A stretch of 64,000 nucleotides of DNA, taken from positions 34,410,001-34,474,000 of the forward strand of contig OZ024747.1 of assembly GCA_964016885.1 (NCBI GenBank). Direction: 5' to 3'. The first letter of the stretch is position 1; each line of letters begins with the position of its first letter. Positions 843 through 52,002 of this stretch are shown here, one piece after another. Below the pieces are notes generated by a model. That model saw only the letters and a program-made list of their open reading frames with translations, searched no databases and was not told the origin of the DNA. The DNA comes from Eledone cirrhosa. Taxonomy: Eukaryota. A program made the translations under genes and the position numbers.

Positions 843-2939
843 TTACCGTACTTTTGGTAGAGGAGGGATGGTTTTTACATCCCTTTTCACTTGATCGTCT
901 GGTGAAGGGACCGTTGAATCGTCCCTTCGGCTGGTCGTCGGCTCTTCTAAGAGAATGTCTGAATATACTCTTCGATTAATGGTTCCTCCTAGGTCCCTGA
1001 AATCACCAACTGCGTTGGGGAATTTCGTTTTAATGTTTGTGTATTGTTTCTGTGCTATTTTTAGCAGTCTTATGTTAGTTGGCGTTTTGATTGGTGCTGG
1101 TATTATGTAGTCCTGTTGTGAAATGTCTGTGTGTTCAATTATGTAAGTCATTAGTTTCTTGTTGTGTGTATTTATTGCCGTGCATTTGTTTTTCTGGGGG
1201 TGGGGTGTGGTTCTGCTATTTTCTTGTCGTTGTTGCTGGGTGTGTGTGTTTTGTTGTTGTGTTTGCGATGTTGGTGCTTGTGGTGGTGGTGTTGAAGGTG
1301 TTGTTGGCGGTGGGGTTGTCGCCGGTGGTGATGGTGGCGCTAGTGTGGGTGGTGATGGTGTTGGTGTTGTTGCTGCTGTGGGTCTCTTTGCAGTAGACTT
1401 TACCCTTTTCTCATTTCTTTCCTCACTTTTCAAAGGCGACGATGCGCTGCTTCTGCGTTTGTGCCTTCTTACGACCTTTTGCCATCTCTCTCCCACCTCA
1501 CACTCCATGTCTGATTCTGTGAGGTCGGGGAGGGGTACCAACTCCACTCTTTCACTTGTTGTTGTTGGTGATGTTTGCACTGGAGTCTCTGTTGCAGCTG
1601 CATTTGGTATTGCTGTTGTTGTTGTTAGTATTTCCACTGCTGCTGCTGTTTTTGATTTCCGTGGAGTGGGTATGGGTGCCACGGGCCTATCGTTCCTGGT
1701 TGCCGCTTGTCCTGTTGCTGGTAGCCGTGGAGCCGGATTCGGAAGGAGGGGGGTTTTCTCCTTTCTCAGGGTCTTCTCGTTGCAGAAGGCCCTGAGGTGA
1801 GTCTTCGATCCACAGCGAAAGCATTTCGGGCGTTTGCCCTCAACACTTATGGGCAGTTGAGTGCCGTTATCGAAGTCTATCACATCCGGGATAGCTTCGA
1901 TGCACTCCTGGTTGGTTTGGATTAGCATCTCAATGGAGGAGCCGACCCAATCTTCTCTTACTTTTTTCTGTACTTGCAGTACAGTTGTTTTGTCCTCGAT
2001 TCCGACGAGGACAGACGCGGCCAGCCAAGAAGGGGTCATTCCGGGGGGGACGTGGGTCAGTTTGACCCTCACAATTTTTTGCCCACAGTAGGAGGGCACC
2101 AACACCATTTCCTCGCTCCTTAGGGTCACTACTGATTGGGCCTTTGCCTCCTGGGGTGTGGCAAAAAGTACGTCTACGGTGGCATATTTTTTGCCTCGGG
2201 TGATGTGCGTTTTCCGCTGCCACACAGACCCCAAGGCTTTTTGTATTTGGGCCTCTGTGGCTCTTTCCACCCTACGGGATTTTGTACTTACTGTACGGTA
2301 CGTGACCGTACAGTGCTCTTGGGTTTCGAAAAAATTTTTCGCTGCCTTGCAGATTGCTCGGTGTCCGTTCTTTGTCACCATCTTCTTCGCTTCCTCTAAT
2401 TCCTCATTTGTTATGAGGATTGTTTCCAAATTTTTCGCAATACCTGCAAATGAGATTGGTTTTTCTCTGCTGTTGTTGTTGTCGTCAGAGCTGCTGGTAC
2501 TTTTGTTGTTGCTGCAGGTACTACGACTACTGCCTCCGCCGCTGTTGCTGTGGTTGTTGTTGGTGTTGCTGCTGCTAATGCTGTTGTTGTTTATGCTGCT
2601 GGTGATGCTGTTGCGGCTGCTACTGTTGTTTTCATTGTCACTGTTGCTGTTGTTATTACGGCTGCTACTGCTATTATTCCTGACGTCAGACGAATGAACT
2701 GGGTTTTCGTATTTCCCGCACACCTGTTTCGTCGCTGTCGTCGTCGTCGTGGAGAAACCTTGCACGCTTTGCACGAGACTTTTCTTTTCTTTCGTCACTT
2801 GCGAAAGAGAAGGGAGGGAGAGAGACACATTTAAAGAAGGGAGGGAGAGAGACAATCTTCTCTCTGCTGTAGTGATGATTGAGGAAGAAGAAGACGGAAT
2901 GAGTGGGAGTGACGTATGAAATTTCTTTTTGGTAGCCAT
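843..2939 (-). CDS. LINE ORF1 (gag-like nucleic-acid-binding protein, CCHC zinc knuckle)
   Basis: Track ORF 843..2972; first ATG in AAAC-ATG-G context at 2939. Contains the knuckle CFRCGSKTHLRAFC and Ser/Asn- and Pro/Thr-rich linkers, and lies directly upstream of ORF2. Confidence 0.88.
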   Translation of the reverse strand: MATKKKFHTSLPLIPSSSSSIITTAERRLSLSLPSLNVSLSLPSLSQVTKEKKSLVQSVQGFSTTTTTATKQVCGKYENPVHSSDVRNNSSSSRNNNSNSDNENNSSSRNSITSSINNNSISSSNTNNNHSNSGGGSSRSTCSNNKSTSSSDDNNNSREKPISFAGIAKNLETILITNEELEEAKKMVTKNGHRAICKAAKNFFETQEHCTVTYRTVSTKSRRVERATEAQIQKALGSVWQRKTHITRGKKYATVDVLFATPQEAKAQSVVTLRSEEMVLVPSYCGQKIVRVKLTHVPPGMTPSWLAASVLVGIEDKTTVLQVQKKVREDWVGSSIEMLIQTNQECIEAIPDVIDFDNGTQLPISVEGKRPKCFRCGSKTHLRAFCNEKTLRKEKTPLLPNPAPRLPATGQAATRNDRPVAPIPTPRKSKTAAAVEILTTTTAIPNAAATETPVQTSPTTTSERVELVPLPDLTESDMECEVGERWQKVVRRHKRRSSASSPLKSEERNEKRVKSTAKRPTAATTPTPSPPTLAPPSPPATTPPPTTPSTPPPQAPTSQTQQQNTHTQQQRQENSRTTPHPQKNKCTAINTHNKKLMTYIIEHTDISQQDYIIPAPIKTPTNIRLLKIAQKQYTNIKTKFPNAVGDFRDLGGTINRRVYSDILLEEPTTSRRDDSTVPSPDDQVKRDVKTIPPLPKVR

Positions 2940-3150
2940 GTTTTTTTGTTTAAAATGAAATTTTGGGTACAAAACCCCAATAACTGGTTATTTAACCCCG
3001 AAGGGCCAAATAACGGACAGAAAGAACCCTCTCACGAGGAGGAGGGTGTCTTTATCAACAATTTGGTTCAAGTTTTAAACAATTTACAATTGTTTTAACG
3101 GTTAAAAATTACTATACCTTACAGAGCCGAGCCTCCGTCAACCATGGCAT

Positions 3151-3152
3151 TC

Positions 3153-3200
<48 letters not shown>
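3151..3200. repeat. (AAT)n microsatellite between the T2 3' end and the T1 5' end
   Basis: Visible perfect AAT run. Confidence 0.97.
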
Positions 3201-3202
<2 letters not shown>

Positions 3203-4646
3203 TTTCTTTATTAACCACAAGGGTTTACATAAAGTAGACATTAAGGACAGTGCAGGACAATGCAGGACGGTACAAATGGGCATTTCTGCGTGTAAAAAAA
3301 CAAAAACAGAGGATGTAACAAAAATAACAATGAAAATAACAATGAAAAATTCCCCAATAGGGGGGAGACTTCGGAGGGACATTTGTGGAGAAAGCCCAGT
3401 AAAAAGCCACAATGACCCTGACCACCAAGGCAAGTGCCCTCTCCCAGTTTTCCACCTTTAGTTTACAGATATATACTCAGAGTCGGCCCATTCACTCGGG
3501 CCATTCTTGCTTCTCTCACCCATCTTTCAACAAAATGCTGGGAAGAGAGCACTTCCCTCTCTACTCTGATTTTCCTTTTCAAATGAAATTTGAAAAAGTC
3601 AATCAGAGCATCACCGAAGAGGTAAGTGCTCGTCTTCAGCCCTTTCAAACGTGTCCACCATACTATCTCTTTCGCCATGGCCACCAGACAGATAAAAACT
3701 GCCTGCCCTTCCCGGCTAAAGGAGGAGGGCGGGGCAATCCTCACGATGGACTCAGATGATAGCTGGATCCGTCCTAAACGCGACAGCAGGTGTTCGACAT
3801 AAACCCACAAGTCAGCAATTTTCGGACACTGGACGAGTGCGTGCAGGACGGTTTCGTCGCCCTGCGCGCATCTCGGACATGCCCGGCTGACGGCACCTCC
3901 ATGCCTGTAGAGTTTATCCCGAACTTGCAAGGCTCCTCGGTAGCACTGCCAGGCCAGAGATTTCTGGAAGTTGTCCATAGGCCCCGGCCCGAAAGTTCTT
4001 CCGAAGAGATTGGCTAGTTGATTTTCGTCGACGCCTAGAGTTTCCCCAAGTACGTCGTCGCTCTTCCCCTCCACTAATCCTCTATAGAACGCCGAGGTGG
4101 AGTTTCCACCGATCACATTGCCCGATTGGTCGAGGGCTGTGAGCGCCTGAAGACATTCCAGTCTCCAGGCGCTCCCTCTCGGTCTTCGCTTGACCCAGGA
4201 CTGCAGCTCCGTCAAGGAAACGAGCTGGGGAAAAACGCGTCTAGCAAACGGCGACCACACCTGATCACCGTCGAGGAAGAGGTGGAGATGTCGTAGCCTG
4301 AGCGCGTGCCTGCGCATCATCAGCCACGGCATGCCCAGCCCTCCACGTAGCGGGTGTTGACAACAGATGGACCGCCTGACCATCGGAGCACGTCCCTTCC
4401 ACAAAAAGCGAAAGAGCAAACGCTCCAGCGCAGTCAGGCGAGGCTTAGGACAAGGTACGACGGTTAGGCGGTAGCAGATGACAGACGCGATGTACGCGTT
4501 AGCCACCTCCGCTCGACCTTTCAGGGATAGCTTCCTCTCCGCCCATTTCTGGGTGAGAGAAGCCTCCCTGCTCGTCACCTCGTCCCAGTTTTTGTCCGTC
4601 TGGAAGTCCGGACCGAACCAGACCCCTAGCAATTTAACCGGTCCGT
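3201..4646 (-). mobile_element. Tx1/L1-clade LINE copy T2, 5'-truncated (ORF2 C-terminus + 3' UTR)
   Basis: Open frame 3463..4632, then a 3' UTR ending CCCTTGTGGTTAATAAAGAAATC-(ATT)n. Confidence 0.9.
3463..4632 (-). pseudogene. ORF2 C-terminal part (RT thumb region and zf-RVT-like Cys-rich domain), 5'-truncated
   Basis: LGVWF...LSLKGRAEVAN...FLWKG...GGLGMP...CPRCAQGDETVLHALVQC, typical of Tx1/L1 ORF2. Confidence 0.88.

Positions 4647-9005: not shown

Positions 9006-9071
<66 letters not shown>
9006..9071. repeat. (AAT)n shared tail-to-tail by D1 (+) and Tx1 T3 (-)
   Basis: Visible run between the two 3' ends. Confidence 0.97.
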
Positions 9072-9072
<1 letters not shown>

Positions 9073-12000
9073 TTTTCTTTATTAACCACAAGGGTTCACA
9101 TAAAGTAGACATTAAGGACAGTACAGGACAATACAGGACGGTACAAATGGGCATTTCTGCGTGTAAAAAAAAAACGGAGGTTGAAATAAAATAACAAAGA
9201 AAAATTCCCCAATAGGGGGGAGACTTCCAAGGGACATTTGTGGAGAAAGCCCATTGAAAGACCACAGTGGCCCTGACCACCAGGGCAAGTGCCCTCTCCC
9301 AGTTTTCCACCTTTAATTTACAGACACATACTCAGAGAAGGCCCATTCATTCGGGCCATACTTGCTTCTCTCACCCATCTTTCAACAAAATGCTGGGAAG
9401 AGAGCACTTCACTCTCTACCCTGATTTTCCTTTTCAAATGAAATTTGAAAAAGTTAATCAGGGCATCACCGAAGAGGTAAGTGCTCGTCTTCAGCCCTTT
9501 CAAACGTGTCCACCATACTATCTCTTTCGCCATGGCCACCAGACAGATAAAAACTGCCTGCCCTTCCAGGCTAAAGGAAGAGGGCGGGGCAATCCTCACG
9601 ATGGACTCAGCTGATAGCTGGATCCGTCCTACACGTGACAGCAGGTGTTCGACATAAACCCACAAGTCAGCAATGCTCGGACACTGGACGAGTGCGTGCA
9701 GGACGGTTTCGTCGCCCTGCGCGCATCTCGGACATGCCCGGCTGACGGCACCTCCATGCCTGTAGATTTTATCCCGAACTGGCAAAGCTTCTCGGTAGCA
9801 CTGCCAGGCCAGGGATTTCTGGAAGTTGTCCATAGGCCCCGGCCCGAAAGTCCTTCCGAAGAGATTGGCTAGTTGATTTTCGTCGACGCCTAGAGTTTCT
9901 CCAAGTACGTCGTCGCTCTTCCCCTCCACTAATCCCCTATAGAACGCCAAGGTGGAGTTTCCACCGATCACATTACCCGATTGGTCGAGGGCTGTGAGCG
10001 CCTGAAGACATTCCAGTCTCCAAGCGCTCCCTCTCGGTCTTCGCTTGACCCAGGACTGCAGCTCCGTCAAGGAGACGAGCTGGGGAAAAACGCGTCTTGC
10101 AAACGGCGACCACACCTGATCACCGTCGAGGAAGAGGTGGAGATGTCGTAGCCTGAGCGCGTGCATGCGCATCATCAGCCACGGCATGCCCAGCCCTCCA
10201 CGTAGCGGGTGTTGACAGCAGATGGACCGCCTGACCATCGGAGCGCGTCCCTTCCACAAGAAGCGAAAGAGCAACGCTCCAACGCAGTCAGGCGGGGCTT
10301 AGGACAAGGTACGACGGTCAGGGGGTAGTAGATGACGCACACTCGACCTTTCAGGGATAGCTTCCTCTCGGCCCATTTCTGGGTGAGAGAAGCCACCCTA
10401 CTCGTCACCTCGTCCCAGTTTTTGTCCGTCTAGAGGTCTGGACCGAACCAGACCCCTAGCAATTTAACCGGTCCGTCCGTCCAGCGCCCGACGACGCTGT
10501 TGGACGCATGGACCTGCCTCTCCAGGTGCCGAGCTAACCGCCTCGTCTAATTTTCTACCTATTTCCCTCTCTGCTCTATTTTTCTCTATTGCTAAAGCCT
10601 TACTAAACCTAATGGACTCTATTAAAATTGCTCTTTTCAGAGCAAACCACCACTTGCTGTTGACGATGGCCCCCGTCAACGCCCGCTTAACTAGTTCGCT
10701 AATCCGGTCTCTGTAGGCCTTGCGCGCTGGTAAGGACGCGTTTAGCTTCCAGTAGCCGGGTCCTCGTCTATGAAGCCTATCTAAGTCAAGCACACAGATC
10801 ACGATTTTGTGGTCCGTCTAGCTAACTATCTTGAATTGTGGACAGCCTATGCTAGACTTATCTATTTCCCTACAAAATACTCTATCTAGATGTGATCTGG
10901 ATGACCCTATGCGATTTGTCCAAGTCCACATTGGTACATTCGGGAAATCCAATCGGTACCTGTCAGACAGTTCAAAACGCCTGAGCAGGTTGGTGAGACT
11001 CTTGCATCATCCTTCCCTATCCACTAATCCCACAGAATCCCAGCGTGCATCTAAGATCCCGTTCCAGTCGCCCACTAACACTAAAGAGCGGGACGTTCCA
11101 AGAAAGGTCTCCAGACGCCGGAAGAAATCAGGCCGCCCTGCTCCTGTCGGGGCATAGACGGCCACTAACCTGAAAGCTTGCCCATCTCCACTGGTCACGT
11201 CCAGCACCACCAACTTACCTTCTGGGTCCAGGAAGATGGCCCGTATGGCAAGATCCAAACCTCTCCGAAAAAGCACAGCAAGTCCTCCCCCCGATCCCGG
11301 ACGCCTGGGAGATGCGTACACATCGTAGCCGCCGAAGATCGGTGCGAAAGCCTGTGCTTCGGAGATTCTGGTCTCACTGATGGCCACTACATCTATGTTT
11401 AGTGACCTGAGGTCGTTGAGCAGGTGGCCCTGCTTCCATGACGACCCCAAGCCACGCGCATTTATGCTGCCTATTCTGAGTGAGGTCATGTTGAAAAGGA
11501 GTGGAAAAGATGGGAAAGACAACTTACCTTACTTCTCGTAGGGGAAGGACGGTTTTTCCATCCTTTTCACTGCTTGTGGCCTCCTCAGGAAGGATGTCCT
11601 TATAAATACTCCTGGAGAGTGCTTGTCGGAAGTCTCCGATGTCTTTGGGGAATTTTTGTTTTAGTGTCATGTACGTTTTCTGTGTGATGCGAGTGATTTG
11701 TATGTGTGGAGGTGGTGTAAATTTTGGGGTTGTTTTGGGGGTAGTCTTTTTCTGTGATGCTGGTGTTGTGTTGGATGTAGTGTAATAATTGCTTGTTGTT
11801 CAAATTTAATGCTGTGTAGTGTGTATCGTTTTGGTGGTTTTGTTTTGTTTGCGTTTGTTGTGGGTTTGCTTCTGTTTCGCATTTTGGTGACTTTTGTGGT
11901 GTAGGTGATGGTGGTGTTGGAGTTAATGATGGTGATGGTGTTGGTATTTGGGTTGATGGGGTTGGTGATGCTGGTGTGGATGGTGGCATATCTGTCCTAA

Positions 12001-13504: not shown

Positions 13505-16500
13505 TGGTTTCTTTATTGGCCACAAGGGCTGACACGAGGAAAAACATTAGAGACGTCACAGAACAGTACAGGACGATACACAGTGGGTTTTGGTCGTGTA
13601 AACAGATTATAACGAATTCGAGCTAGAAATCAAAAAAAATTCAAAAGAAGAACACGGCTACCCTGACCACCAGTTTTCTCACTCCTCAGTCTACAGGTGC
13701 ATACATAGAGCAGGCCCGTTAACTCGCACCGGACTCGCCACTTTCACCCACCTTTCAACAAACATACTAGAAAGTGTCCGTCTTCAACCCTTTCAACCTT
13801 GTCCACCACACAATCTCTTTCGCCATGGCCACTTGGCAGATGAAAAATGCCTGCCCTTCCTCCTCTTTAAAGGAGGATGGTGGGGCTATCTGCAGAACGG
13901 ACTCAGCCGATAACAGGATTCATCCTACACGCGGCTGCATATGCTAGACATAGTTCCACATGTCAGCATTCCTCGGGCACTGAACGAGTGAGTGCAGGAC
14001 GGTTTCGTCGCCCTGCGCACATCTCGGACAGGCTCGGCTAACAGCACCTCCATGCCAGTAGAGCTTATCCCGAACCGGTAACGCTCCCCGTTAGCACTGT
14101 CAGGCCAGGGATTTCTGGAATTTCTCCATAGGCCCCTGTCTGAAAGTTCTTTTGAAGAGGGCGAACAGCTGATCGTCTTCGACGCCCAGGGTCTCCCCGA
14201 CAAGGTCATCGCACTTTCCTTCCACTAGCCCTGTATAGAATGCCGAGATTGATGTTCCCCCGATACTAGTGCCCAGCTGGTAGAGCGCTTGGAGACATTC
14301 CAGTTTCCAAGTGCTACCCTCGATCTCTTCTTGATCCAGAGCTGAAACTGATGGACATCATGGATCTGCCTCTCCAGGTCCCAAGCTACAGGCCCACCGA
14401 CCTTTCCTGGTTGATCATTTCTCCTGTCAACGCCACGTATTCGCTTAGTGTAGTGCCGATCGCCTTGATATGTTTGGCCTTCGACACCACTACGGTGACA
14501 CTGTCTGCATATGCTGACACGGATCTTCCGCATCCAAGTTCGCGTGGCATCACCACATGGTCTCCAATTTGTGCAGTAATGGCTCTACAGCCAGAACGTA
14601 GAAGCGGGACGAGAGGGGACAACCCTGGCGGACCGAGCGCATGATGCTGAACTGCTGCAACAGGTGACCATTCACCCTCACAAACATCGAGCAGATACAG
14701 CCCCTAAAAACGGCGCTCACAATCGAGCAGATGTCGCTGTGCATCGCAGCGATGCAGTCCCTAAAAACGGGCCCGAACCCGGCCGACTCAAGGACCGCAG
14801 CCAGGTACCGATGGTCGACCCTATCAAATACTTTAGATTGATCCAAGTTGATCAGGGCCCCGCCACTGCCAGGTTCCTTAACCACCATCTCTATGATGTA
14901 TCGCATAAGTTGGATGTTGTCGTGGATAGATCTCACGGGAAAGGCGCATGTGTGCGCCTCCCCTACCAGATCACCGATGACAAGCACCAATCTCTTTGTT
15001 AATACCCCGGCCAATCATGAACTCTGCGTTTAGCAGAGTTATGGGCTTGAAATTGTCTATAACTTCCCCATGTTCGGGTATTTTCTCAGCAGTGCCCCCG
15101 CTTCCCGGCTCACACAACTAGGAATGATCCCGTTCTGCTGCCAGTTGCAGTAGATATCTGCCAAGAGGTCGCCGAACAAGTCTGGTATGTACGCATAAAT
15201 TACGTAGGGCAGACCCTCCAAACCTGGCAATTTACCCCTCGTGTAGTCAGACATAGCTTCCTGTATTTCACCTGTTGTTATCGGCTGTTCGCAGCACTGC
15301 GACGCAATTGTCGAAAGCCGCGGCAGTCCATCGAGGTATGCACCGAAGTCCATACTCCGATCCGGCCAGCCGCCGCTCCCGAACAATTGAGCAAAGTGCT
15401 TTTGAGAAGCCACACATATCTGCTCGTGGTCGAGCAACATGCGCCCGTTTTGATCAGGCAAAGACCGAATTGTGGCTTTGTTGCCACGTCGCAACAACAC
15501 CCCCCGGGCCCATTGAACAGCTTTCATTCCCTCGTATCTCAGAGCACGCGCTCTAGCTCTAACAACGCATCCTTCATGCTTTGCGATGAAGAATTGGTCG
15601 AGTGCTAATCTGGCCGCAAGCACGTCGATTGCGATGCCTGTCCTAAACGCCTCTTCTAGCTATCTGACTAGCTCTCCCTCTACTCTATTTTCCTCTATCA
15701 CTACTCCTTTGCTAAACCTTATCGATTCTAATCTAATAGCACTTTTCAGGGTAAATCACCACCTGTTGTTGCCGATCGCACCGTCAACGCACGCTTAACT
15801 AATTCGCTAATCCAGTCTCTGTAACCTTTACGCGCCGGCAACTACGCGTTCAGCTTCCAGTAACCGGGCCCTTGCCTATGGAGTCTATCTAAACCAACTT
15901 CAAAGATCACAAATTTGTGGTCCATGTAGTTGGCAATTATAAATTGTGGACAACCTACACTAGCCTTATCTGTTTCCCTACAGAATACCCTATCTAAATA
16001 CAATCTGGATGACCCGATGCGGTTTGCCCATGTCCACATTGGCACATTCGAATAATCTAGTCTATACTTGTCACACAGTTCAAAACGTCTGAGCAGGCTG
16101 TTGAGGCTTTAACACCCTCTCCTCTGTCTACTAACCCCACATAATCCCAGCGTGCATCTAAGATACCGTTCCAGTCGCCCACTAACACTAAAGAGCTGGA
16201 CGTTTCAAGAAAGCTCTCTAGACGTCTGAAAAAATCTGGCCGTCCTGCCTCTGCTGAGGTGTAGGCGGCTACGAGCCTGAAAGTATTGCCTTCGTTGCCG
16301 GTCAGGTCCAGCATCACCGACTTCTCTTCTGCGTTCAGGAAGATGGCCCATATGGCGAGATCCCAGCCTCTCCGAAAAAGCACAGCAACTCCTTTTCCCG
16401 ATCCCGGACTACTGGGAGATGCGTACGCATTGTAGCGGCTGAAGATCGGTGCGAATGCTCGTGCTTCGGTGATTCTGGTCTCGCTGATGGCCACCACATC

Positions 16501-18590
16501 TATGTTTAGTGACCTGAGGTCGTTGAGCAAGTGACCCTGCTTCCGAGATGACCCCAGGCCACGTACATTTATACTGCATATTCTAAGTACGGCCATGCTG
16601 GATGAGGAAACGGGCTAAGTGACAACGGAACACTTACCTTGATCGTGTGGGGAAGGGACAGTAGAACCATCCCTTCGGCTAATCATGGGTGGCTCCAATA
16701 TGATATCGGTATATATTCTTTTGGAGAGTGACCCCCTGAAATCTCCAACTGCTTTGGGGAACTTTTGCTTTAATTGTTTATAGTATTCCAGTTTAATTTC
16801 GACAATTGTAATGTTTTGGGGTAATGTTCTTGGTGTTGGTGGGGTGTGGTAATTTGAGTCTCTAATGTCTGCGTGTTGTTTTATATGTTCCATTAATCAT
16901 TTGTGTGTGATATTTATGGATGTGTATTTTTTTGTTGCTGTTTTCTTGTTGCTGTTGGTATGTGTGCTTTGTTGTGTTTGTGATGTTGCTGTTTTGGTGA
17001 GACTGGTGGTGGTGGTGTGGTTGTTGTTGGTGGTGATGGTGATGGTGGTGGTGTTGATGCAAGTCTCCTTGCAGTCTTTATACTTCTTTCTTTACCTTCG
17101 CTTTTGGAGGGAGAAACTGTGGTATTTTTGCGTTTGTTCATTTAGTTGACAAAAGTTTTCCACTCCTCTGCCGCCTAATACTCCATGTGCGACTATCATA
17201 GGTCTGGGAGGGGTATGAGTTCTACCCTCTCATTTGTTTTTTGTTGTTGTTGTTGTTGTTGGTGGTGGTGGTAGAGCCTGGTCTGCCGTTCTTGGCACAG
17301 GTGCAACTAGTGCAACTGTTTCTGTTGCTGCAGTGTCACAGACGTTGTCTTCCTACTCTCTGTAGAAGCTCCCGACTTTTTCACTGACTGCTCTGTTTCT
17401 GATGGAAGCGATTCCGCTGCTGCTTCTGCTACTGTTACCACAGGTGTTGTTGTTAATACTGCCTGTTATCTTCTGTGGGCAGAAAGCCCAGAGGTGAGAC
17501 TTTGATCCACAGTTGAAGAATTTTGGGCAGCTTCCTTCAACAGATATGGGAGCCATTCCCGAGGTCTATTACGCCGGGAATAGCGCTGATGCAGTCCTCG
17601 TCGGTTTGGATGAGCATCTCCATTCCAATATCGGACCAGTCCTCTCTCCCTAACTTTTGTACCTGCAGAATGGTTCTATCCTCGATGCCCGCAAGAACAG
17701 ACACGACCACCAAGGCATGGGTATGTAGGGCGGGACCTGGATTACCCTGACCGTTGCAATTTTTTTCCCGCAGTAAAACGGGACTAACGTTATGTCGTCA
17801 TTCAGTATAGTCCTCAGTGAGTGTGATTTTGCTTCCTGGATGGTAGCAAAAATGCCTTCTGGATTTGGACCTCGGAGGCTTTCTCCACACGACGTGATTT
17901 CGTGGCAATCGTGCGGTACGACAGTGTGCGTCGCTCTTCTTCCCCCAGGATGTCGGTTGGTGGTTTCAAAGACACTGAAAAATCAGTTCTCGTTACCTTA
18001 TATCTTGCGACCTCCATCTCCTCCTTTGTGATGATTGTTTCTATGTTGCGAGTTATTTTTGCAAAAGAGGTCGTCTCTTTTTCAGTGGCGTCATTGTTGC
18101 CACCACTACTGCTGCTACTGGTCTTGTTGTTGATGCTGGTGCTGTTGTGGTTATTGCCACTGCTACAAACGGTGTCGTTGGTGATACTGCTGCTGCTGCT
18201 ACCACAGGTGTTATTGTTAATACTGCCGCTATGGCTGCTGCTGCTACCTTCTTTGTTGTCAAATGGACCAGCAGCAGTCGCTTCTCGACCGCTGCTTGAT
18301 GAAGAAGAGAAAGAAATGTCTTTTGCCTGACTTTCACTATGTGATGATGAAGAAGACGGAAAGGAAAGCGAGACTTCACGCTGACAGATGATGAAAGAGA
18401 AGTTTGAGAAGGATACCTTGCTGAAGGAGTAATTTTTGTGTGGAGACATGTTAGAGAAACAGACATTTGAATGACGCCATTTTTCTTCTCTCTTTTTTTT
18501 TGGCCGGACGTATTTGCTAAAAGCAAAGTTCAAATTGGAATTTAGCTCCGAATGTCTAAATACCGATTAATTTCGACCACCTCCAGGGAA
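13505..18590 (-). mobile_element. Tx1/L1-clade LINE copy T4, near full length but decayed
   Basis: Fragments with APE (16057..16596), PGLEGLP, LDQSKVFDRVDH, VRQGCPLS, AYADS, and ORF1 (16615-18533). 3' end CCCTTGTGGCCAATAAAGAAAC. Confidence 0.88.
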
Positions 18591-19119: not shown

Positions 19120-20975
19120 ATGAGCCTTCGCTGTCGGTCACGTCCAGCACCATCACCTTCCCTTGTGTGTCTAGGAGGATGGCCTGTATAGCGAGATTCA
19201 AGCCTCTCCGAAAAGACACAGCAACTCCATCTCCTGCTCCTGGTCGGCTGGGAGATGCATATACATCGTAGCCGCCGAAGACCGGTGCGAAGGCTAGTGC
19301 TTCGGAAATTGTGGTCTCGCGGATGGCCACCACATCTACGTTTAGTGACTTGAGGTCATTGAGCAGGTGACCCTGCTCCATGACGACCCCATCCACGAAT
19401 AGTTATACTGCCTATTCTAAGTAAGGCCATGTTGGGTGAGGAATAGGATAGGGAAGAAATGATCACTTACCCTGTTTCCGTAGAGAATGGGTGATTGAAT
19501 CGTATATTTGGCTGGTTGTGACACCTCCTTGAGAGGTACACATACTTTTGTCAGCGAATCGCTGAAATCCCCAACCGCGTTGGGAAATTTACTCTTTAAA
19601 TTTTATATTGTTCTACATGTAGTTCAATTACTTGGGAGTTTTGGGTATACTTGATGGGGTTTGTAATGTGTAGTAGTTTCTCTGTAATTCTCGTGTGTAA
19701 TTGTGTGTTTTATCAAATCCTTATTGTCTGATTATGGCAGTGTATTTTTATTGGGGGAGGGGTCTGGTTTTCTTGTTGTTGCTTGTGTGTGTTTTGTTGT
19801 GTTTGTGATGCTGAATTAGTGGTGTCGTGTTTGTTGGTGGTAATGGTGGCGTTGGTGGTGTTTCAGATGGTGGTGGGGGCGGTGTTGCTGCAAGTCATCT
19901 TGCAGAATTTGCTTTCTTTTTTGCTTTCCTCGCTTTTGGATGGTGAAGTTGCGCTGTTTTTTCGTTTGTTTTTGTTGCAGACCGTTTTCCACTTCTCTGC
20001 CGCCTCATACTCCATGTCCAACTGTGAGAGGTCGGGGCGGAGTAGGAGTTCTACTATCTCATATGTTTTTGTTGGTGATGTTGGTGGTTTTGGAGCCTGG
20101 TCTGCCTTTCTTGGCACAAGTGCAACTAGTGCGGCTGTTTCTGTTACTACCACTGCTACGCTGTTTTTTTGTCCTTGTCCTTGGAGTGGGTTCCACGGAC
20201 GTCGTCCTCCTGCGATCTGGTAGAAGGTACCGCCGTCCTCGCTGCCTGCCCAGCTTCTGATGACAGCGGTTCCGGTGTTGGAAGGAGGGGTACCTTCACC
20301 TTTGTTATCTTCCGTCGGCAGTATGCCCTGAGGTGAGACTTCAATCCACACTTGTAGCATTTTAGGCGCCTTCCTTCCAGAGATACGGGAAGTTGGGAGC
20401 CATTTCCAAGGTTTATTACGTCGGGAATAGCTCTGATGCAGTCCTACTCGGTTTGGATGAGCATCTCCATTCCAATACCGCACCAGTCCTCTCTCCCCAG
20501 CTTCTGTACCTGCAGGATGGTCATTTTGTCTTCGATGCTTGCAAGGAGAGAGACGACCAGCCATGACACGGACGTAGGGCGGGACCTGTGTCACCCTGAC
20601 TTTTGCAATTATTTTCCCACAGTAAAATACTATTTCATCACAGACTAAGTTTGTCCAAGAGTCAGATTTTGCGTCCTGGGTGGTATTAAAAGGAACGTCC
20701 ACAGTATCATATTTATTGCCTCGGGTGATGTGAGTTTTCCGTGCCCACACAGTCACTTTTGTATTTGAGCTTCAGTGGCTCCGTCGACACGACGCCATTT
20801 CGTGTCAATTGTGCTGTAAGACACCGTGCGTTGCTCTTGCTCCTCCTTGAATTCAGTTGGAGGTTTTAGGGAGACTGAACAAATTCAATTCTGGTCACCA
20901 TGTGTCCTGCAACAGCCATTTCCTCCTCATTGACTAGGGCATCTTTAAGTTGCATACCTCCGCCGCAAAAAGAGA
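19120..20975 (-). mobile_element. Tx1 copy T6 fragment (ORF1 and first part of APE), decayed
   Basis: QGHLLNDLKSLNVDVVAIRET (19055..19396), THITRGNKYDTVDV and the knuckle region (19863..20756). Confidence 0.85.
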
Positions 20976-41606: not shown

Positions 41607-42810
41607 ATGCCTTCTTTATTAACCACAAGGGTTTACACAAAGTAGACATTAAGGACAGTACAGGACAATACAGGACGGTACAAAAGGGCATTCCTGCGTG
41701 TAAAAAAACAAAAAAACAGGATGTAATAATAGAACAATGAAAAAATTTCCCAATAGGGGGAAAGCTTCCGAGGGACATTCGTGGATGAAGCCCATTAAAA
41801 AAAAACAGTGACCCTGACCACCATGGCAAGTGCCCTCTCCCAGTTTTCCACCTTTAATTTACAGACACATACTTAGAGTAGGCCCATTCACTCGGGCCAT
41901 TCTTGCCTCTCTCACCCATCTTTCAACAAAATGCTGGGAAGAGAACACTTCCCTCTCTACCATGATTTTCCTTTTCAAATGAAATTTGAAAAAGTTAATC
42001 AGGGCAACACGGAAGAGGTAAGTGCTCGTCTTCAGCCCTTTCAAACGTGTCCACCATACTATCTCTTTCGCCATGGCCACCAGACAGATAAAAACTGCCT
42101 GCCCTTTCCGGCTAAAGGAAGAGGGCCGGGCAATCCTCACGAAGGACCCATCTGATAGCTGGATCCGTCCTACACGCGACAGCAGGTGTTCGACATAAAC
42201 ACACAAGTCAGCAATGCTAGGACACTGGGCGAGTGCGTGCAGGACGGTTTCGTCGCCTTGCGCGCATCTCGGACATGCTCGCCTGACGGCACCTCCATGC
42301 CTATAGAGTTTATCCCGAACTGGCAAAGCTCCTCGGTAGCACTGCCAGGACAGGCCAGGGATTTCTGGAAGTTGTCCATAGGCCCCGGCCCGAAAGTTCT
42401 TCCGAAGAGATTAGCTAGTTGATTTTCGTCGACGCCTAGAGTTTCTCCAAGTACGTCGTCGCACTTCCCCTCCACTAATCCTCTATAGACCCTCAAAGGT
42501 GGAGTTTCCAACGATCACATTGTCCGATTGGTCGAGGGCTGTGAGCATCTGAAGACATTCCAGTCTCCAAGCGCTCCTTCTCGGTCTTCGCTTGACCCAG
42601 GACTGCAGCTCCGTCAAGGAGACAAGCTGGGGAAAGACGCGTCTAGCAAACGGAGACCACACCTGATCACCGTCGAGGAAGAGGTGGAGATGTCGTAGCC
42701 TGAGCACGTGTCTGCGCATCATCAGCCACGGCATGCCCAGGCCTCCACAGAGCGGGTGTTGACAGCATATGGACCGCCTGACCATCGGAGCGCGTCCCTT
42801 CCACAAAAAC
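41607..42810 (-). mobile_element. Tx1 copy T7, 5'-truncated (same subfamily as T2/T3)
   Basis: CPRCAQGDETVLH, GGLGMPW; 3' UTR nearly the same as T2/T3. Confidence 0.9.
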
Positions 42811-45800
42811 GATGTTGTTACACCTTGAAGATTTCTACACTGCCATGTACTACACATCAAATAGATCGAATACAGAACAGACATATATCAACTGGTAAAT
42901 GAAACATCCCGTAAACAGAGGCTATATGGACAGTAACAAACTAGCCAATATACGAAGAAATATTGCTAAGGAAATGTTACTAACTGATATAGAAATAGAT
43001 AAGAGCAAGCAGTTAGCACAAAGTCAGCGCAGGGAAAATTAAAACATGTGTCAGTGAAAACGAGGTAGAATGTAACACTTTGAATCCCAGGGTTGGGGCG
43101 GAATCACTGATAACAGAACAAATTAAAGAAAGGATCGAAAAAGTGGAGGGAGTGCATGCTCAAGATGAAACTCAAAATGAAAACAATGAGATCGTAAATG
43201 ATAAAGAAATGAATGAGAATGAACTTGCCAACTTGAAGGATGAAATTATGATCGAATGGATGAAAATGAAGAATCGGACATGGTGGAACGAGACACTCTC
43301 CCTAAAATCCAGAACCTAAACAGAATGAAAAGATAATACACAAGACTAACATAATTCTCAAAAACATTATCATCACAAACAAACTAAACATTACTGATTT
43401 AAATCATCTCTATTATGCATCGGCTAAAGTCACCACTCATTTATGTGGAGTGAAAATGAAAAAACAAATAAATTCCCACAAAAGATCTACTTGGCAAGAG
43501 AACATCAATCGCCAAATAAACCTTCTCCGATCTGACATAGACATTTTCACAAACTACAAAGTAGGTCACCATGTCAACAAAAATAAACTTAGAAAATGGA
43601 AGAGAAAATACAGTATAAAATCAACAAGGGACATAGACATGCTGATAGAAATAATCAAGCAAAAAGTGTCGGCCAAAGCTGCTCGTATAAGGCGTTTGAA
43701 AAACGATCTAGATTCTATAAGGACAATAATATGTTCAAAAACAACAAAAAAACTTCTACAGATAAATTGGCAAGTCAACAATAACTGCTAAATCAATACC
43801 ACCCAAGGAGGAAGTGACAGAAATCTGGGAAAAGGTGTGGGCCGAAAAAGAGGTCATAATATACATGCCCCATCGATAGACAGGCAAATGAAAGATACAG
43901 CTCACCTTGAGGAACAAACATGGGAAAATATAACAGTTGAACAGTTGAACAGTTGCGTTTGGCTCTTAGAAAACCAGCAAATGGAAATCCCCAGGAATAG
44001 ACAAAATACCAAAGTCTCATGAGCTGTTAGCCCAACTTTACGATGAAATAGTTAAGGAGGCAGAAAAGATACCATCATGGCTAGTTAACGGCATTACATT
44101 CCTGCTTCCGAAGAATGATGAGACAAACAATCCCCAAAGTTACAGACCGATAACTAGCTTGACCACAATGTATAACATTTTAAATTCAGTCCTAACTGAA
44201 TGTACATATGACCACCTGATAACAAATGATCTATTTCCCAATGAGCAGAAAGTGTGTAAACGAGGCTCATATGGCTGTAAGGGTCAGCTTTTGGTTAACA
44301 AAATGATACTGGAATATTGTCATAATAGACCCCAAAATCTATCAATTGCTTGGATAGATTATAAAAAAGCATTCGATAGTTTGCCACACAGTTGGATTGA
44401 AAAATGTTTAGAGATTTTCAAAATATCTCCCGTTGTTAGGAGGTCCCTGTCATTCAGTATGACGACATGGAAAACGACACTCCTTTTGAATAGTGAAAAA
44501 AAATTACTGGAAGCTGGAGAAGTTAATATTAATTGTGGAATTTTTCAGGGTGACTCTTTATCACCGCTTTTATTCCGCATCGCACTTGTACCATTAAGTA
44601 AAATGCTCAATGAAACAACACATGGATATAAAGTCTATGACAAAACCATTAATCACTTGTTCTACATGGATGACTTGAAACTATTTGCAAAAAATTATGA
44701 ACAATTATCCACTGTGGAGCAGTTCAATGATGACATTAAAATGGAGTTTAGACTAGATAGATGCGCCAAAGCAACGTTCACCAGAGGAAAGCTGCTGAAA
44801 AGCTCCGACATTAATCTTGATCGGGGGAATGTGATAAGAGAACTTGATCAAGAAGAAACTTACAAATATCTAGGTGTTTGTGAAGGAGACGGAATCAAGC
44901 ACAGGACAATGAGGGAAAGGATAAGCAAGGAATGTTACCTTAGAGTAAGAGCAATCTTAAGAACGGAATTGAATGCAAGGAATAGGATCGATACCATAAA
45001 CAATCTTGCCATACGAGTAGTAACCTACAGTTACAATGTCATCAACTGGTCAAGCACAGAGATCTGTATGCTCGATACAAAAATTAGAAAATTCTTAACC
45101 AAACACAGAATGCATCACCCTAAGGCAGATACAGATATAATATATCTCCCTAGGAAAGAAGGAGGACGTGGTTTAATCCAGTTAGATATTGCGTTGAAAA
45201 CTGCAATAATTGTATCATCAAAATCGTTTTGAAACACGAAAGCATCAAAAGATTATACCCTATTACAAAAGATGAACAAAGATACAGTAATGGACTACGA
45301 ATTTCAAAACTCCCATTTACTGCTGAAATGGAAAACACAGAAAAAGCAAAGCAGGTCAAAGAAAGAACTGCCACAGAAACTGGCTGAGAAGTGGCAAGAA
45401 AAGCCTCTGTATGGAAAATACCCAGAAAGCTAACAATCCTGATGTTGGCAACATTTTAACCTATCAGTGGTTGGCAGCCTCCAGACTGAAATCGGAGACT
45501 GAAGGACTGATTATATCAGCACAAGATCAGTGTCTGCCAACAAAAATATTACCAAGCCAGCATAATAAAAAAATGGATGCAACCCATTATGCCCTGTATG
45601 TAAAAAACAATCAGAGACCATTCATAATATAATTTCAATGTGCAGTCATATAGCTCCAACCGAATACCTAAACAGGCATGACAGAGCTGCACAATACATT
45701 CATTGGATAATGTGTAAGCATTTTGACCTGCCCCATCAAAAGAATTGGTGGGAGCATCAACCACCTTCCATACTTGAAAAAGATCACATCTCAATCTTGT

Positions 45801-46302
45801 GGAACTTTAGCATCCAAACAGACCGAAAAATAGATGCAAATAGACCTGATATAATACTGAAGTACTTTAAAAAGTGGGTATGCGTGCTAACTGATATGTC
45901 CGTTCCAATAGACAAGAATGTATCTATAAAATCATTTGAAAAATCGAGCAAGTATAAGGACCTGGAGATAGAAATTGGAAAAATGTGGAAATTGAGAACT
46001 AAAACAATACCAGTGGTTGTAGGCACTCTAGGAATGATACCTAAGGGGTCTAATGATTATCTATCGCAAATCCGAGGAAACTCGCGTATAGGAGAAATAC
46101 AAAAGATAGTACTAATGGGAACTGCCCATATACTAGGGAAGATTCTGTCAATATAAGTACATAACAAGTCTAAACACCTAAACTTGCATGTGTGTGTATG
46201 TATGTTCTTTCTTGAACCTGGCGGACATTGTTGTCTCCTGAGGTCACTGGTTGTGACTTGGTGATTACTCGTATGAACATAAAGCAAGATAAATGCAACT
46301 GT
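42811..46302 (+). mobile_element. R4/Dong-clade family D2 copy, slightly 5'-truncated, frameshifted
   Basis: WIDYKKAFDSLPH, GIFQGDSLSPLLF, HLFYMDDLKLF, YKYLG (44159..45232); RHD, RPDII, KYKDL (45638..46156). Ends GCAACTGT-(AAT)n. Confidence 0.92.
44159..45232 (+). pseudogene. Reverse transcriptase domain of Dong-like D2
   Basis: Track ORF with RT motifs including YMDD. Confidence 0.9.
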
Positions 46303-46324
46303 AATAATAATAATAATAATAATT

Positions 46325-49500: not shown

Positions 49501-51984
49501 GTCCTGCGTCAGTAGAGGCGTAGACGGCCACCAGTCTAAAGGCACCACCTTCGTTATTGTTCACATCCAGGACCACCAACTTCCAGTCCGAGTCCCGGAA
49601 GATCGACCTTACCTCGAGATCCAGGCCTTTCATACACAGCACTGCCACCCCACCACCCATTCCTGGCCGACTAATAGATGCAAATATCTGATAGTCGTCG
49701 ATAATGGGGATCAGGTAGCACATGTCGGAAATCCTGGTCTCGCTTACGGCAATTACATCCATTTCTCGAGACCTGAGGTCGTTGAGCAGGTGACCCTGCT
49801 TCCAGGACGAGCCCAGTGTCGAACATTTAAACTTCCTACTCTTAATACGGCGATGTTGGCAGGTTAAAGAAAGAGAGGAAAGGTTTACTTACCTTCCGGG
49901 CACTTGTGAAGGTCGGGTGGTTCGACCACCATAGTTGGTGGGGTTATTTTGGGGAACCCCTTTAAATGTCTTGAAGTGGGTTTTACGTATCTCTTTGTAT
50001 AAATCATGCGACATTCGTACCAGAACGCGAAATGTGCTCGATTTAAACATGTCCCCCTCTCTTTGTATTTCTTCACTTCGTGCTACGAGGGCCATGAGTT
50101 CTTTGTTGGTCCTCCTGAGGAGCACGAAGTTTTGTATGTTTTGTTGGTGTGATTTTATTTGTTTGTGTGGCAGTGGTGGTGATGATTTTGATGGTGTTGT
50201 TTCGGTTGTGTCTGTGTTTGTTGTGAGTGCGGTGTCTGTGGTTTCAGATGTTTGTGTGGGTACTTGTTCTTGTGTCTGTTTAGGTTATTTGCGTTTGGGG
50301 GATACTGGTAATTGTTATGGGGTGTTGATGTTGGTGTTGACGGGGAGATGTTTGCGATGGAGGTGGCTGCATTTTTTATTGTGGGTCTTTTTGAGGTTTG
50401 TTGAGTTTTTTTTTTTCATTTTGTGTTTCCTTTTTTGTATTTTGGGGGATTTTGGTTTTCCCTCATCTTCACTACTGGTAAATGAGAGTGTCTGTAAGTG
50501 GGTCTGTGTGTGTGTTTATATTTTTATTTATGTGTGTATTTTTTTGCGGGGGGGGGGAGTTGACAACTTTCCACGTTTCTCCCCTGGGTTGTCAATGTTG
50601 GTGGTGGTCTTTCTATTGGTGTTGTTGCTGGTGGTTTTGCCGTTGCTGGTGTTGGTTGTGGTCCTCGCCCCGGCGTCAGCAGCAGTGGGGCCCTTCGAAC
50701 CGTTGCATCTTTAAGCAGTTGAGGTAGGAGGCTCGCAAATGGGTCTTTACTCACAAACAATGCGGCATTTTGCACTCTGTCATAAATTCTATGACCGACC
50801 CATTCTGAAGGCGGATTTGGTCCGGGATTGTCTTCACATTCTCTGGCCTGATCTGGAGAAGTATCTCCAGGTCAAACCCGGACCAGTCTTCTCTGGCAGT
50901 TCCTGTCACTTCTATCGGGAGGGTTTCCGTCCCCTCCACAATCACACATCCCAGAAGCCACCACATGTCAAACCCTGGTGGGATCCTGGGAATGCGGAGA
51001 CGGGCTGTTCTTTTTCCCATGTGGAGAGGTACATTATGATCTTGCTGGTTTGCAAGGTGTCATAGCGTGTTTCATAGCGAGGGCTTCTGACTTAAACAGC
51101 ACCGAAATGATGCCGTATTGTCTGCCCCTCGCTATGTGTTCGGTATCATCTCTGATGCACCTCAGCGTGACGTCGACATCTGCTTGTGCAATTAAAGCAG
51201 CCCTTTTGGTTTGTGTTGAGATGCATCTGTAATGCACCGTTCTGCGCTCCACTGCCTCAATAGCTTCTACCGGGACAGTTAAGTTGGCCCAGGTTTGCTC
51301 TTGCTTGATGAGCTTCCAGGCCTGTGCCAACTTTTCATCTTTATTTGTTAGGTCTATGTTGATGCATGGCCTCTTTTTCGCTGCTGCTGCAGCGAAACCT
51401 TTCTGCCTGTTGTCGTTGGGGGTGTTGTTGTCGTTGTTCTTGTTGGTGTTGTTGTTATCACTGTCACTGTTATCATTGTTGTCTTTGGTGCCATTGTTGT
51501 TCTCGGTGCAGTTGGTATTGTTGCTGTTGGTGTTGTCGGTATTTGTTTTCTTGTTAGTGGTGTTGATATTGTTGTTGCATTTGTCATTTTCTTTGTTATC
51601 TGTATTTCCGTTGTCGCTGTTACTGTTATCTTTTTCAAAATTAGAGTTCTCAGTGTTGTTATCATCGCTGTCTTTGTTCACGTTGTTTGTGGTGGTGCTT
51701 GTTGTATCAATTTCTGTTAATTTCACCGTAGCGCTCATCTCAACTTCTACGTCGTCTTCAGACGACAGCAGAGTGTTTTTTTGTTTTTTTTCTCGATAAT
51801 ATTTTAAAATTTAAAAAAGTTCAAATATTTGGGCCAAATGGCCCAAATATTATACTTTCCCCTTCACAGGGCAAACTTCGAGGGCTTGTATGCCTTACAC
51901 AACAACAAAAAATTAAATAAATAAGTTTTGACAGGTAAATAAATAAACTTACGAGAGCGAGCAAAAAGACGTCCGTTCGGACCC
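46526..51984 (-). mobile_element. Tx1 copy T8, full length, decayed, distinct subfamily
   Basis: ORF1 fragments (51034..51738, 50751..51020), APE (49406..49762), AYVDD (47644..48075), CPRC knuckle. Both ends abut (AAT)n. Confidence 0.88.
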
Positions 51985-52002
51985 AATAATAATAATAATA
52001 AT

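Follow-up and report, generated by a model that had tools for sequence, protein, structure and literature searches.

Splice-born retroelement subfamilies are already known. The SVA_F1 (MAST2) and chimpanzee STK40-SVA subfamilies were formed by splicing (PMC6139936), and among human mRNA/L1 chimeras 6 of 17 end exactly at splice donors, some of them without an acceptor, with both cis and trans splicing proposed as the route (10.1101/2025.02.02.635956). Spliced L1 RNA can itself be retrotransposed, as in the SpIREs (PMC5860796), and RNA ligation before retrotransposition has also been described (PMC6789731). In rodents and in the horse, new L1 families have been formed by recombination from co-existing LINE families (PMC5872511).

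The locus described here, T1, lies at one edge of a window of 64,000 nucleotides of Eledone cirrhosa DNA (contig OZ024747.1, positions 34,410,001 to 34,474,000). Like the mRNA/L1 chimeras, T1 has a sense 5' partner that ends at a splice donor (in T1 by way of a proxy, the copy T4) and is fused to a LINE, which is near full-length in the mRNA/L1 case. Unlike them, where the partner is a host exon and 17 insertions are concerned, the partner in T1 is the 5' UTR and ORF1 of another LINE, a coding module was replaced, and the product was amplified (10.1101/2025.02.02.635956). As with SVA_F1 and STK40-SVA, a single splicing event (for T1, a putative one) founds a retroelement subfamily, but SVAs, which are non-autonomous, acquire a first exon from the host, whereas T1 is of the autonomous two-ORF type and gains an ORF1 (PMC6139936). 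What sets T1 apart from both cases is that the two partners are LINEs and that the swapped part is the ORF1 module. T1 resembles the recombinant L1 families in being a new family drawn from co-existing LINE families; the horse case, however, lies within ORF2, with splice sites going unmentioned in the accessible text, whereas the T1 joint is out of register and has a doubled tail (PMC5872511). SpIREs are deletions within one element, while T1 joins two families and keeps both ORFs (PMC5860796). By anatomy, not by an RT tree, T1 can be likened to Kibi and Koshi of the Tx1 clade, which are two-ORF AP-endonuclease LINEs with microsatellite 3' ends and tandem stacking, although the target of the T1 group is apparently (TTA)n, unlike that of Kibi and Koshi (PMC4494074). 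No report of splice-mediated ORF1 exchange between LINE families was found in the open-licence literature; the word "splice" is absent from the accessible part of a vertebrate L1 survey (PMC5381506), as are "Tx1" and "splic" from that of an octopus LINE paper (PMC9115989). The new element, not found in the literature searched, would be a LINE-LINE case in which ORF1 is swapped.

Microsatellites and nested non-LTR retrotransposons abound in the window, which is animal DNA. The two-ORF LINE group to which T1 belongs is represented by 10 pieces, all 10 on the minus strand, and the features of these copies given below are all on that strand. The ORF1 of T1 (843-2939) is open over 698 amino acids from its ATG, contains a CX2CX4HX4C knuckle and ends with a TAA inside a splice donor motif (841-847). 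A pyrimidine-rich spacer (808-846) separates it from the 5' part of ORF2 (1-807), whose start codes for an AP endonuclease domain (a PF03372 match that passes the curated cut-off, E 1.8e-15) and which is cut by the window edge. The 5' UTR (2940-3152) adjoins the (TTA)n tail of the copy T2, and contigs of the family reach 3143-3150. The 5' UTRs of T1 (about 3118) and T7 (51952) share a second donor-like sequence: some 30-35 nt in from the 5' end, each has a similar motif whose last letters are CTCT(C)GTAAG. The 3' part of T1 lies beyond the window; PF13966 (zf-RVT, at the ORF2 C-terminus) is present in the 3' parts of T2 and T7, and all six 3' ends in the window carry AATAAA and a (TTA)-type tail, some of them decayed. 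ORF1 had no Pfam match above cut-off, and its nearest feature clusters were zf-CCHC and ZCCHC3-like (0.90-0.93 for T1 ORF1, P0001). A full-library search with ORF1 gave three weak matches, comprising two true relatives (P0006 from Octopus sinensis, and P0004) and one low-complexity false match; the narrower protein searches gave no ORF1 relatives, and a protein search with ORF2 gave a single match, in Argonauta hians (54%). A metagenome scan yielded 153 pattern matches, 0 of them confirmed. Judged from its sequence, T1 is an L1/Tx1-type, two-ORF non-LTR retrotransposon of the autonomous type. The Tx1 label is our assumption, made from anatomy rather than from an RT phylogeny.

A conserved feature near the border between the two ORFs is the donor itself. 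Five ORF1/ORF2 junctions are present in the window (donors at 846 in T1, 11527 in T3, 16637 in T4, 19470 in T6 and 49892 in T7), and each has the motif GGTAAGT, with the exon ending after the first G, about 40 nt before ORF2 (19465-19471 in T6 and 49887-49893 in T7). The motif is invariant in all five copies, compared with 14 of 81 flanking columns. In T1, T3 and T7 the ORF1 stop lies within the motif, which is read in another frame in T4, T6 and the T4-like tail of T1 described below. Because the motif thus occurs in two ORF1 phases, the stop codon is not the reason for its conservation, and the motif is kept at the RNA level. As to the partner of the donor, ORF2 ends with a TAG in the context CTGTAG, with a TGA within 1-2 nt, at 13693 in T4, 46767 in T7 and 52195 in T8. 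If this TAG (in T4, within 13688-13696) is read as an acceptor, an in-frame stop follows immediately in T4 and T7, and the C-terminus in T7 is the same as that of the unspliced ORF1. A predicted splice from the ORF1 donor to the ORF2-stop TAG would therefore yield, in T4 and T7, an ORF1-only message with an immediate stop. In the T1/T3 family, ORF2 ends with TAA in all three copies and the CTGTAG acceptor is absent. A T-rich, acceptor-like tract ending in ACACGCAG occurs in the 3' UTR of all three T1/T3-family ends (3286, 9157 and 41694, minus strand). A mini-intron running from the donor to an AG 14 nt into ORF2, which would fuse the two ORFs, was considered and set aside: it is in frame in T1, T3 and T7 but not in T4 and T6. 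The corresponding skip of 792-846 was not found among the four joints listed from public runs, in which contigs drop rare variants.

The T1/T3 donor has a further peculiarity. The donor, spacer and start of ORF2 in this family are complementary to the family's own ORF2 end (z -4.1 to -6.5 in 6/6 pairs, with 0/300 shuffles; for the T1 spacer, z -4.7 to -6.5). The duplex pairs 846-785 with 3492-3428 in T2, with 9347-9283 in T3 and with the copy ending at 41861, that is, with the last ORF2 codons and the first 35 nt of the 3' UTR. The T4 donor-spacer piece gives z values of only -1.1 to -1.7 against T1/T3-family ends, and neither cognate pair reaches significance (T4-T4, z -0.4; T7-T7, z -1.9); the T7 piece reaches z -4.7 against one T1-family end, so the specificity of the duplex is incomplete. 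The donor of the T1/T3 family is thus predicted to be base-paired to the 3' UTR and masked, and since it is predicted to be paired, its conservation may be partly structural. In our reading, a T4-type donor is likelier to be the active one than a T3-type donor, and donor, spacer and ORF2 would likely have to travel together.

The chimeric nature of T1 was first proposed from the sequence alone, and the strings and coordinates quoted in that sequence-only reading, including the junction at 890/889 and the T3 CAG at 11572-11570, are all present in the window. The proposal held that the ORF2 and spacer of T1 are nearly identical to those of T3. This is accurate for the 5' part of ORF2 (96%, 286/297) and for the spacer (37/40), but overstated elsewhere, given that the adjacent ORF1 tail is 83% identical and that synonymous divergence in ORF2 is 9.5% (pS 0.095, pN 0.018). 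Because of these values, the ORF2 sequences of T1 and T3 appear to have replicated under selection since they split. The proposal also placed the T1 ORF1 with those of T4 and T6, and far from T3. The distance from T3 is confirmed, with 57% identity in central ORF1 (216/377) and 55% in the ORF1 C-terminal domain (135/244); the likeness to T4 and T6 is looser than claimed, at 68% and 64% in central ORF1 and 60% and 53% in the C-terminal block. Since the similarity is of this order, T4 must be regarded on sequence grounds as a proxy for, and not the true 5' parent of, T1. Differences in rate do not account for the T1-T3 pattern, because identity between T4 and T6 is 82% in ORF2 and 84% in central ORF1. 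It falls to 57% in the ORF1 C-terminal domain; the T4-T6 pair forms a second ORF1 mosaic (T4 16638-17960 against T6 19471-20850), with a border in a low-complexity linker, away from the donor. Separate ORF1 and ORF2 trees, suggested as a check, gave no topological incongruence, but with 5-6 copies and support of 32-49 on the key ORF1 nodes they are uninformative. Informative sites for the quartet T1,T3 against T4,T6 number 23:1:2 in central ORF1, 10:0:0 in ORF2 and 11:10:9 in the C-terminal domain. As both ORFs give one and the same quartet topology, the signal of chimerism lies in the distances and in a doubled ORF1 tail, not in trees.

The doubled tail consists of two units in tandem. Unit A (890-932) matches T4 16680-16638 at 37/43 positions and ends, in phase 1, at the position of the T4 splice donor. 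Unit B (847-889) matches T3 11569-11528 at 35/42 positions and begins right after the position of the T3 CAG. T3 has a single tail, running from the CAG (11572-11570) to the donor (11522-11572 in all), and serves as a proxy for the 3' parent; T4 has a single tail and donor (16632-16680, with the donor GT from 16637) and serves as a proxy for the tail of the 5' parent. The remaining 13 of 15 tail pairs are 42-63% alike, and units A and B match each other at just 23/42 positions. In 10-nt bins the register of T1 flips abruptly, from T3 (9/10 at 880-889) to T4 (9/10 at 890-899). The last 9 nt of T1 before the joint are identical to T4, in which GTAAGT comes next, and the two proxies share just an AG at the joint, this being the end of the T4-type exon and also the end of the T3-type CAG. 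Unit B is one base longer in T1 than in T3, which brings the tail back into the T3 frame. T1 is alone among the five junctions in having two tails; the other four are single-tailed. Pairing of units A and B with the 3' region, as a cause of tail conservation, found no support in 12 pairs (z -1.6 to +0.7). The breakpoint thus lies where the earlier proposal had put it, at the donor of one proxy parent and after the CAG of the other, and on this evidence the T1 chimera is real and well delimited.

Seven of the 24 public runs listed were compared with T1, a contig being counted as bridging if it matched at least 31 letters on each side of 890/889, with counts taken from the contigs listed. The same joint is bridged in at least five of the seven runs. 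The bridging contigs are records 5 and 6 in X1 (about 86% alike), 4-1470 in X4 (5 differences), 818-2333 in X6 (10 differences), 781-1010 in X8 (1 difference) and 842-1010 in X9 (22 differences, or 13% divergence, without a gap). An assembly artefact as the source of the joint is ruled out by these independent contigs. The low-depth, near-identical contigs in X4, X6 and X8 may be cross-contamination from a high-copy source, and because of this possibility only X1, X7 and the diverged contig of X9 are taken as evidence for the range of the family. In X1 the depth is 1.1-2.6 x 10^5 along ORF1, compared with 10-30 for single-place contigs, although depth is not copy number. In X7 none of the eight pieces shown bridges the joint, and the summed depth of 1.2-3.7 x 10^5 over 850-999 shows no dip at the joint and has T1 letters in unit B. 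The raw reads of X22, of which about 1% were read, gave only 7 low-complexity reads. The diverged X9 contig has T3 letters at four unit-B sites (848, 854, 856 and 877), as expected of a founder that took its unit B from the T3 family, with later change in T1.

Single-tailed elements of the T3 type were also recovered independently of the window, in X8 (record 24) and X9 (record 25). The X9 record has a loose end at 886 that matches the T3 upstream sequence, which places the T3-type CAG context in a second copy and corroborates the breakpoint. All four listed joints (774-810 to 900-913) have single-place depth and fit single-tailed A-type elements. A spliced retro-copy at the retained donor would give a loose end before 847, and none was present among the 19 listed of 169 loose ends. 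Over T1 740-847, six of the eight X7 pieces listed cover ORF2, spacer and donor, and their match breaks off at 847, on the exon side of the donor. The donor-spacer-ORF2 block is thus common to many families with differing ORF1 tails. The doubled tail is derived, going back to one old founding event and then amplified as a family.

The window also provides the arrangement of copies from which hybrid transcripts might arise. The sequence-only reading had invoked head-to-tail arrays, and these are present: both visible 5' ends lie right behind the (TTA)n tail of an older copy, T1 after the (TTA)15 of T2 and T7 after T8. T2 (3153-4646) is a 5'-truncated copy of the T1/T3 ORF2 family, 93% identical to the 3' part of T3, with PF13966, and lies head-to-tail upstream of T1. 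In this window, five of six 3' ends adjoin the TAA/TTA tail of another element or a Tx1 5' end, and three of them meet the 3' end of a different non-LTR element that lies in reverse orientation. Tx1-type (TTA)n ends are found at 3155-3199, 9008-9070, about 13490, about 41590 and 51987-52001; the (TTA)n coincides with the TAA-type tail of a second family on the opposite strand in three cases and precedes a Tx1 5' end in two, and it is likely from these positions that Tx1-type copies target TAA/TTA microsatellites. The second non-LTR family, which looks Dong/R4-like, carries a restriction-like endonuclease motif, and a 3-kb inverted pair of its copies (43411-46323 and 58191-55221, 91% identical) flanks T7 and T8. 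Because stacked copies on the same strand exist, what a read-through model needs is available, although the source pair itself is not in the window.

We lean, with modest conviction, towards a splice-defined origin of the T1 joint, in which a 5' exon was joined, once, to a cryptic CAG in the RNA of a second family. A T4-type donor would be active, and the TAG that closes ORF2 is probably its usual partner. Either in trans or within a transcript that reads through stacked copies, this donor would on one occasion be spliced to the CAG that lies 42 nt upstream of a T3-type donor, and retrotransposition of the hybrid RNA would follow. In the product, donor, spacer and ORF2 of the T3 type would stay together; such a block is predicted to be a requirement, given the pairing of the spacer with the end of its own ORF2. 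The one-base gain would return the added tail to the T3 frame, and the hybrid would then amplify. We slightly prefer read-through in cis to trans-splicing and to the end-joining of a 5' exon that had been set free, and RNA ligation is a possible further route for such an exon. The proposal that splicing caused the joint is thus still the favoured one, in a reduced form: the case suggests a splice origin from one founding event, and the acceptor is weak. As the sequence-only reading had remarked, the pyrimidine tract is poor: pyrimidines make up 44% of the 27 nt that precede the CAG, compared with 67-78% at the other candidate acceptors of these elements.

The main competitor, a plausible one to which we give somewhat less credence, is recombination without splicing. 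A T3-type cDNA truncated 42 nt before the donor would have joined a T4-type sequence via the AG, by nested insertion into a genomic copy or by template switching, and the match to the donor would reflect chance plus selection, in that a joint downstream of the donor would keep an additional, unmasked donor and one lying further upstream would intrude on the ORF1 C-terminal domain. There are seven AGs within the last 70 nt of the T3 exon, and because the AG at the joint is part of a Ser codon common to unit A, T3, T4 and T6, it needs no splicing explanation; the overlap is what microhomology alone would be expected to give. The weak acceptor, the other ORF1 mosaics in the window and the nesting of copies within each other all agree with recombination, recombinant L1 families are common in rodents (PMC5872511), and the predicted duplex between the spacer and the ORF2 end would account for the retention of the T3 donor and spacer without splicing. 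Two points weigh against it. The 3' ends of the T1 family lie in (TTA)n in five of six cases, and not in ORF1 tails. The second is the coincidence that it needs, which was gauged by enumerating out-of-register crossovers between the T4 and T3 tails, within a range, chosen post hoc by the analyst, that took in the final 70 nt of both exons and the T4 spacer. Of 6380 such crossovers, 94 (1.5%) are compatible with the donor and 21 (0.3%) with both donor and AG; with at least 2 nt of microhomology required, 21 of 1008 (2.1%) are donor-compatible. Recombination without splicing therefore requires a coincidence of 1.5-2% in the enumerated range, which by our own estimate might perhaps rise to a 5-15% chance match should selection narrow that range.

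The broader proposal, that splice-mediated ORF1 swapping recurs, is not supported here. On this reading the ORF1/ORF2 border has a built-in joint, at which mis-splicing between stacked copies repeatedly makes new ORF1-ORF2 combinations, T1 being one dominant product. All bridging contigs listed have the same joint, and the T4/T6 mosaic lies away from the donor; we consider a recurrent process of this kind unlikely.

Less probable still is that unit A is a 43-nt T4-type patch, placed by two crossovers between an unrelated ORF1 and a T3-type tail, or alternatively that T4 took its tail from the parent of T1; the exchange of ORF1 and ORF2 would then be a separate step from the doubling of the tail. 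The identity of T1 to T4 does fall, from 34/40 at 890-929 to 24/40 at 930-969 (unit A is 86% like T4, and the domain just upstream only 60%), the left bound of the patch is the AG homologous to that of the T3 CAG, and eight X7 contigs match unit A up to 938 and then differ. However, no 44-nt joint, and no skip of unit A or of unit B alone, occurs among the four joints listed from four runs, and since no listed contig skips unit A, the expected parent with the T1 ORF1 and unit B is unseen.

It is hardly credible that the doubled tail is the ancestral state or goes back to a tandem duplication within the element, T3 and T4 each having lost one unit: the doubled form is old (members 13% diverged) and the quartet topology is uniform, but the similarity of units A and B is at the between-family level and each has a close single-tailed relative, the single-tailed state is the rule in the window, even in the most distant copy (T7), and recurs in the T3-type contigs of X8 and X9, and the older doubled copy is nearer to T3 in unit B.

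Changes of ORF1 or of the 5' end in LINE lineages are usually put down to "recombination", and a donor-exact joint offers a concrete and testable route by which they could occur. Found in an amplified family, such a joint also speaks indirectly for past use of the conserved donor that closes ORF1. If a built-in joint were to exist after all, spliceosomal exon shuffling would drive the turnover of LINE families, with ORF2 framed like an intron. If the T1 joint reflects a single event, it is a neat fossil; if more donor joints are found genome-wide, it would be a mechanism of family turnover.
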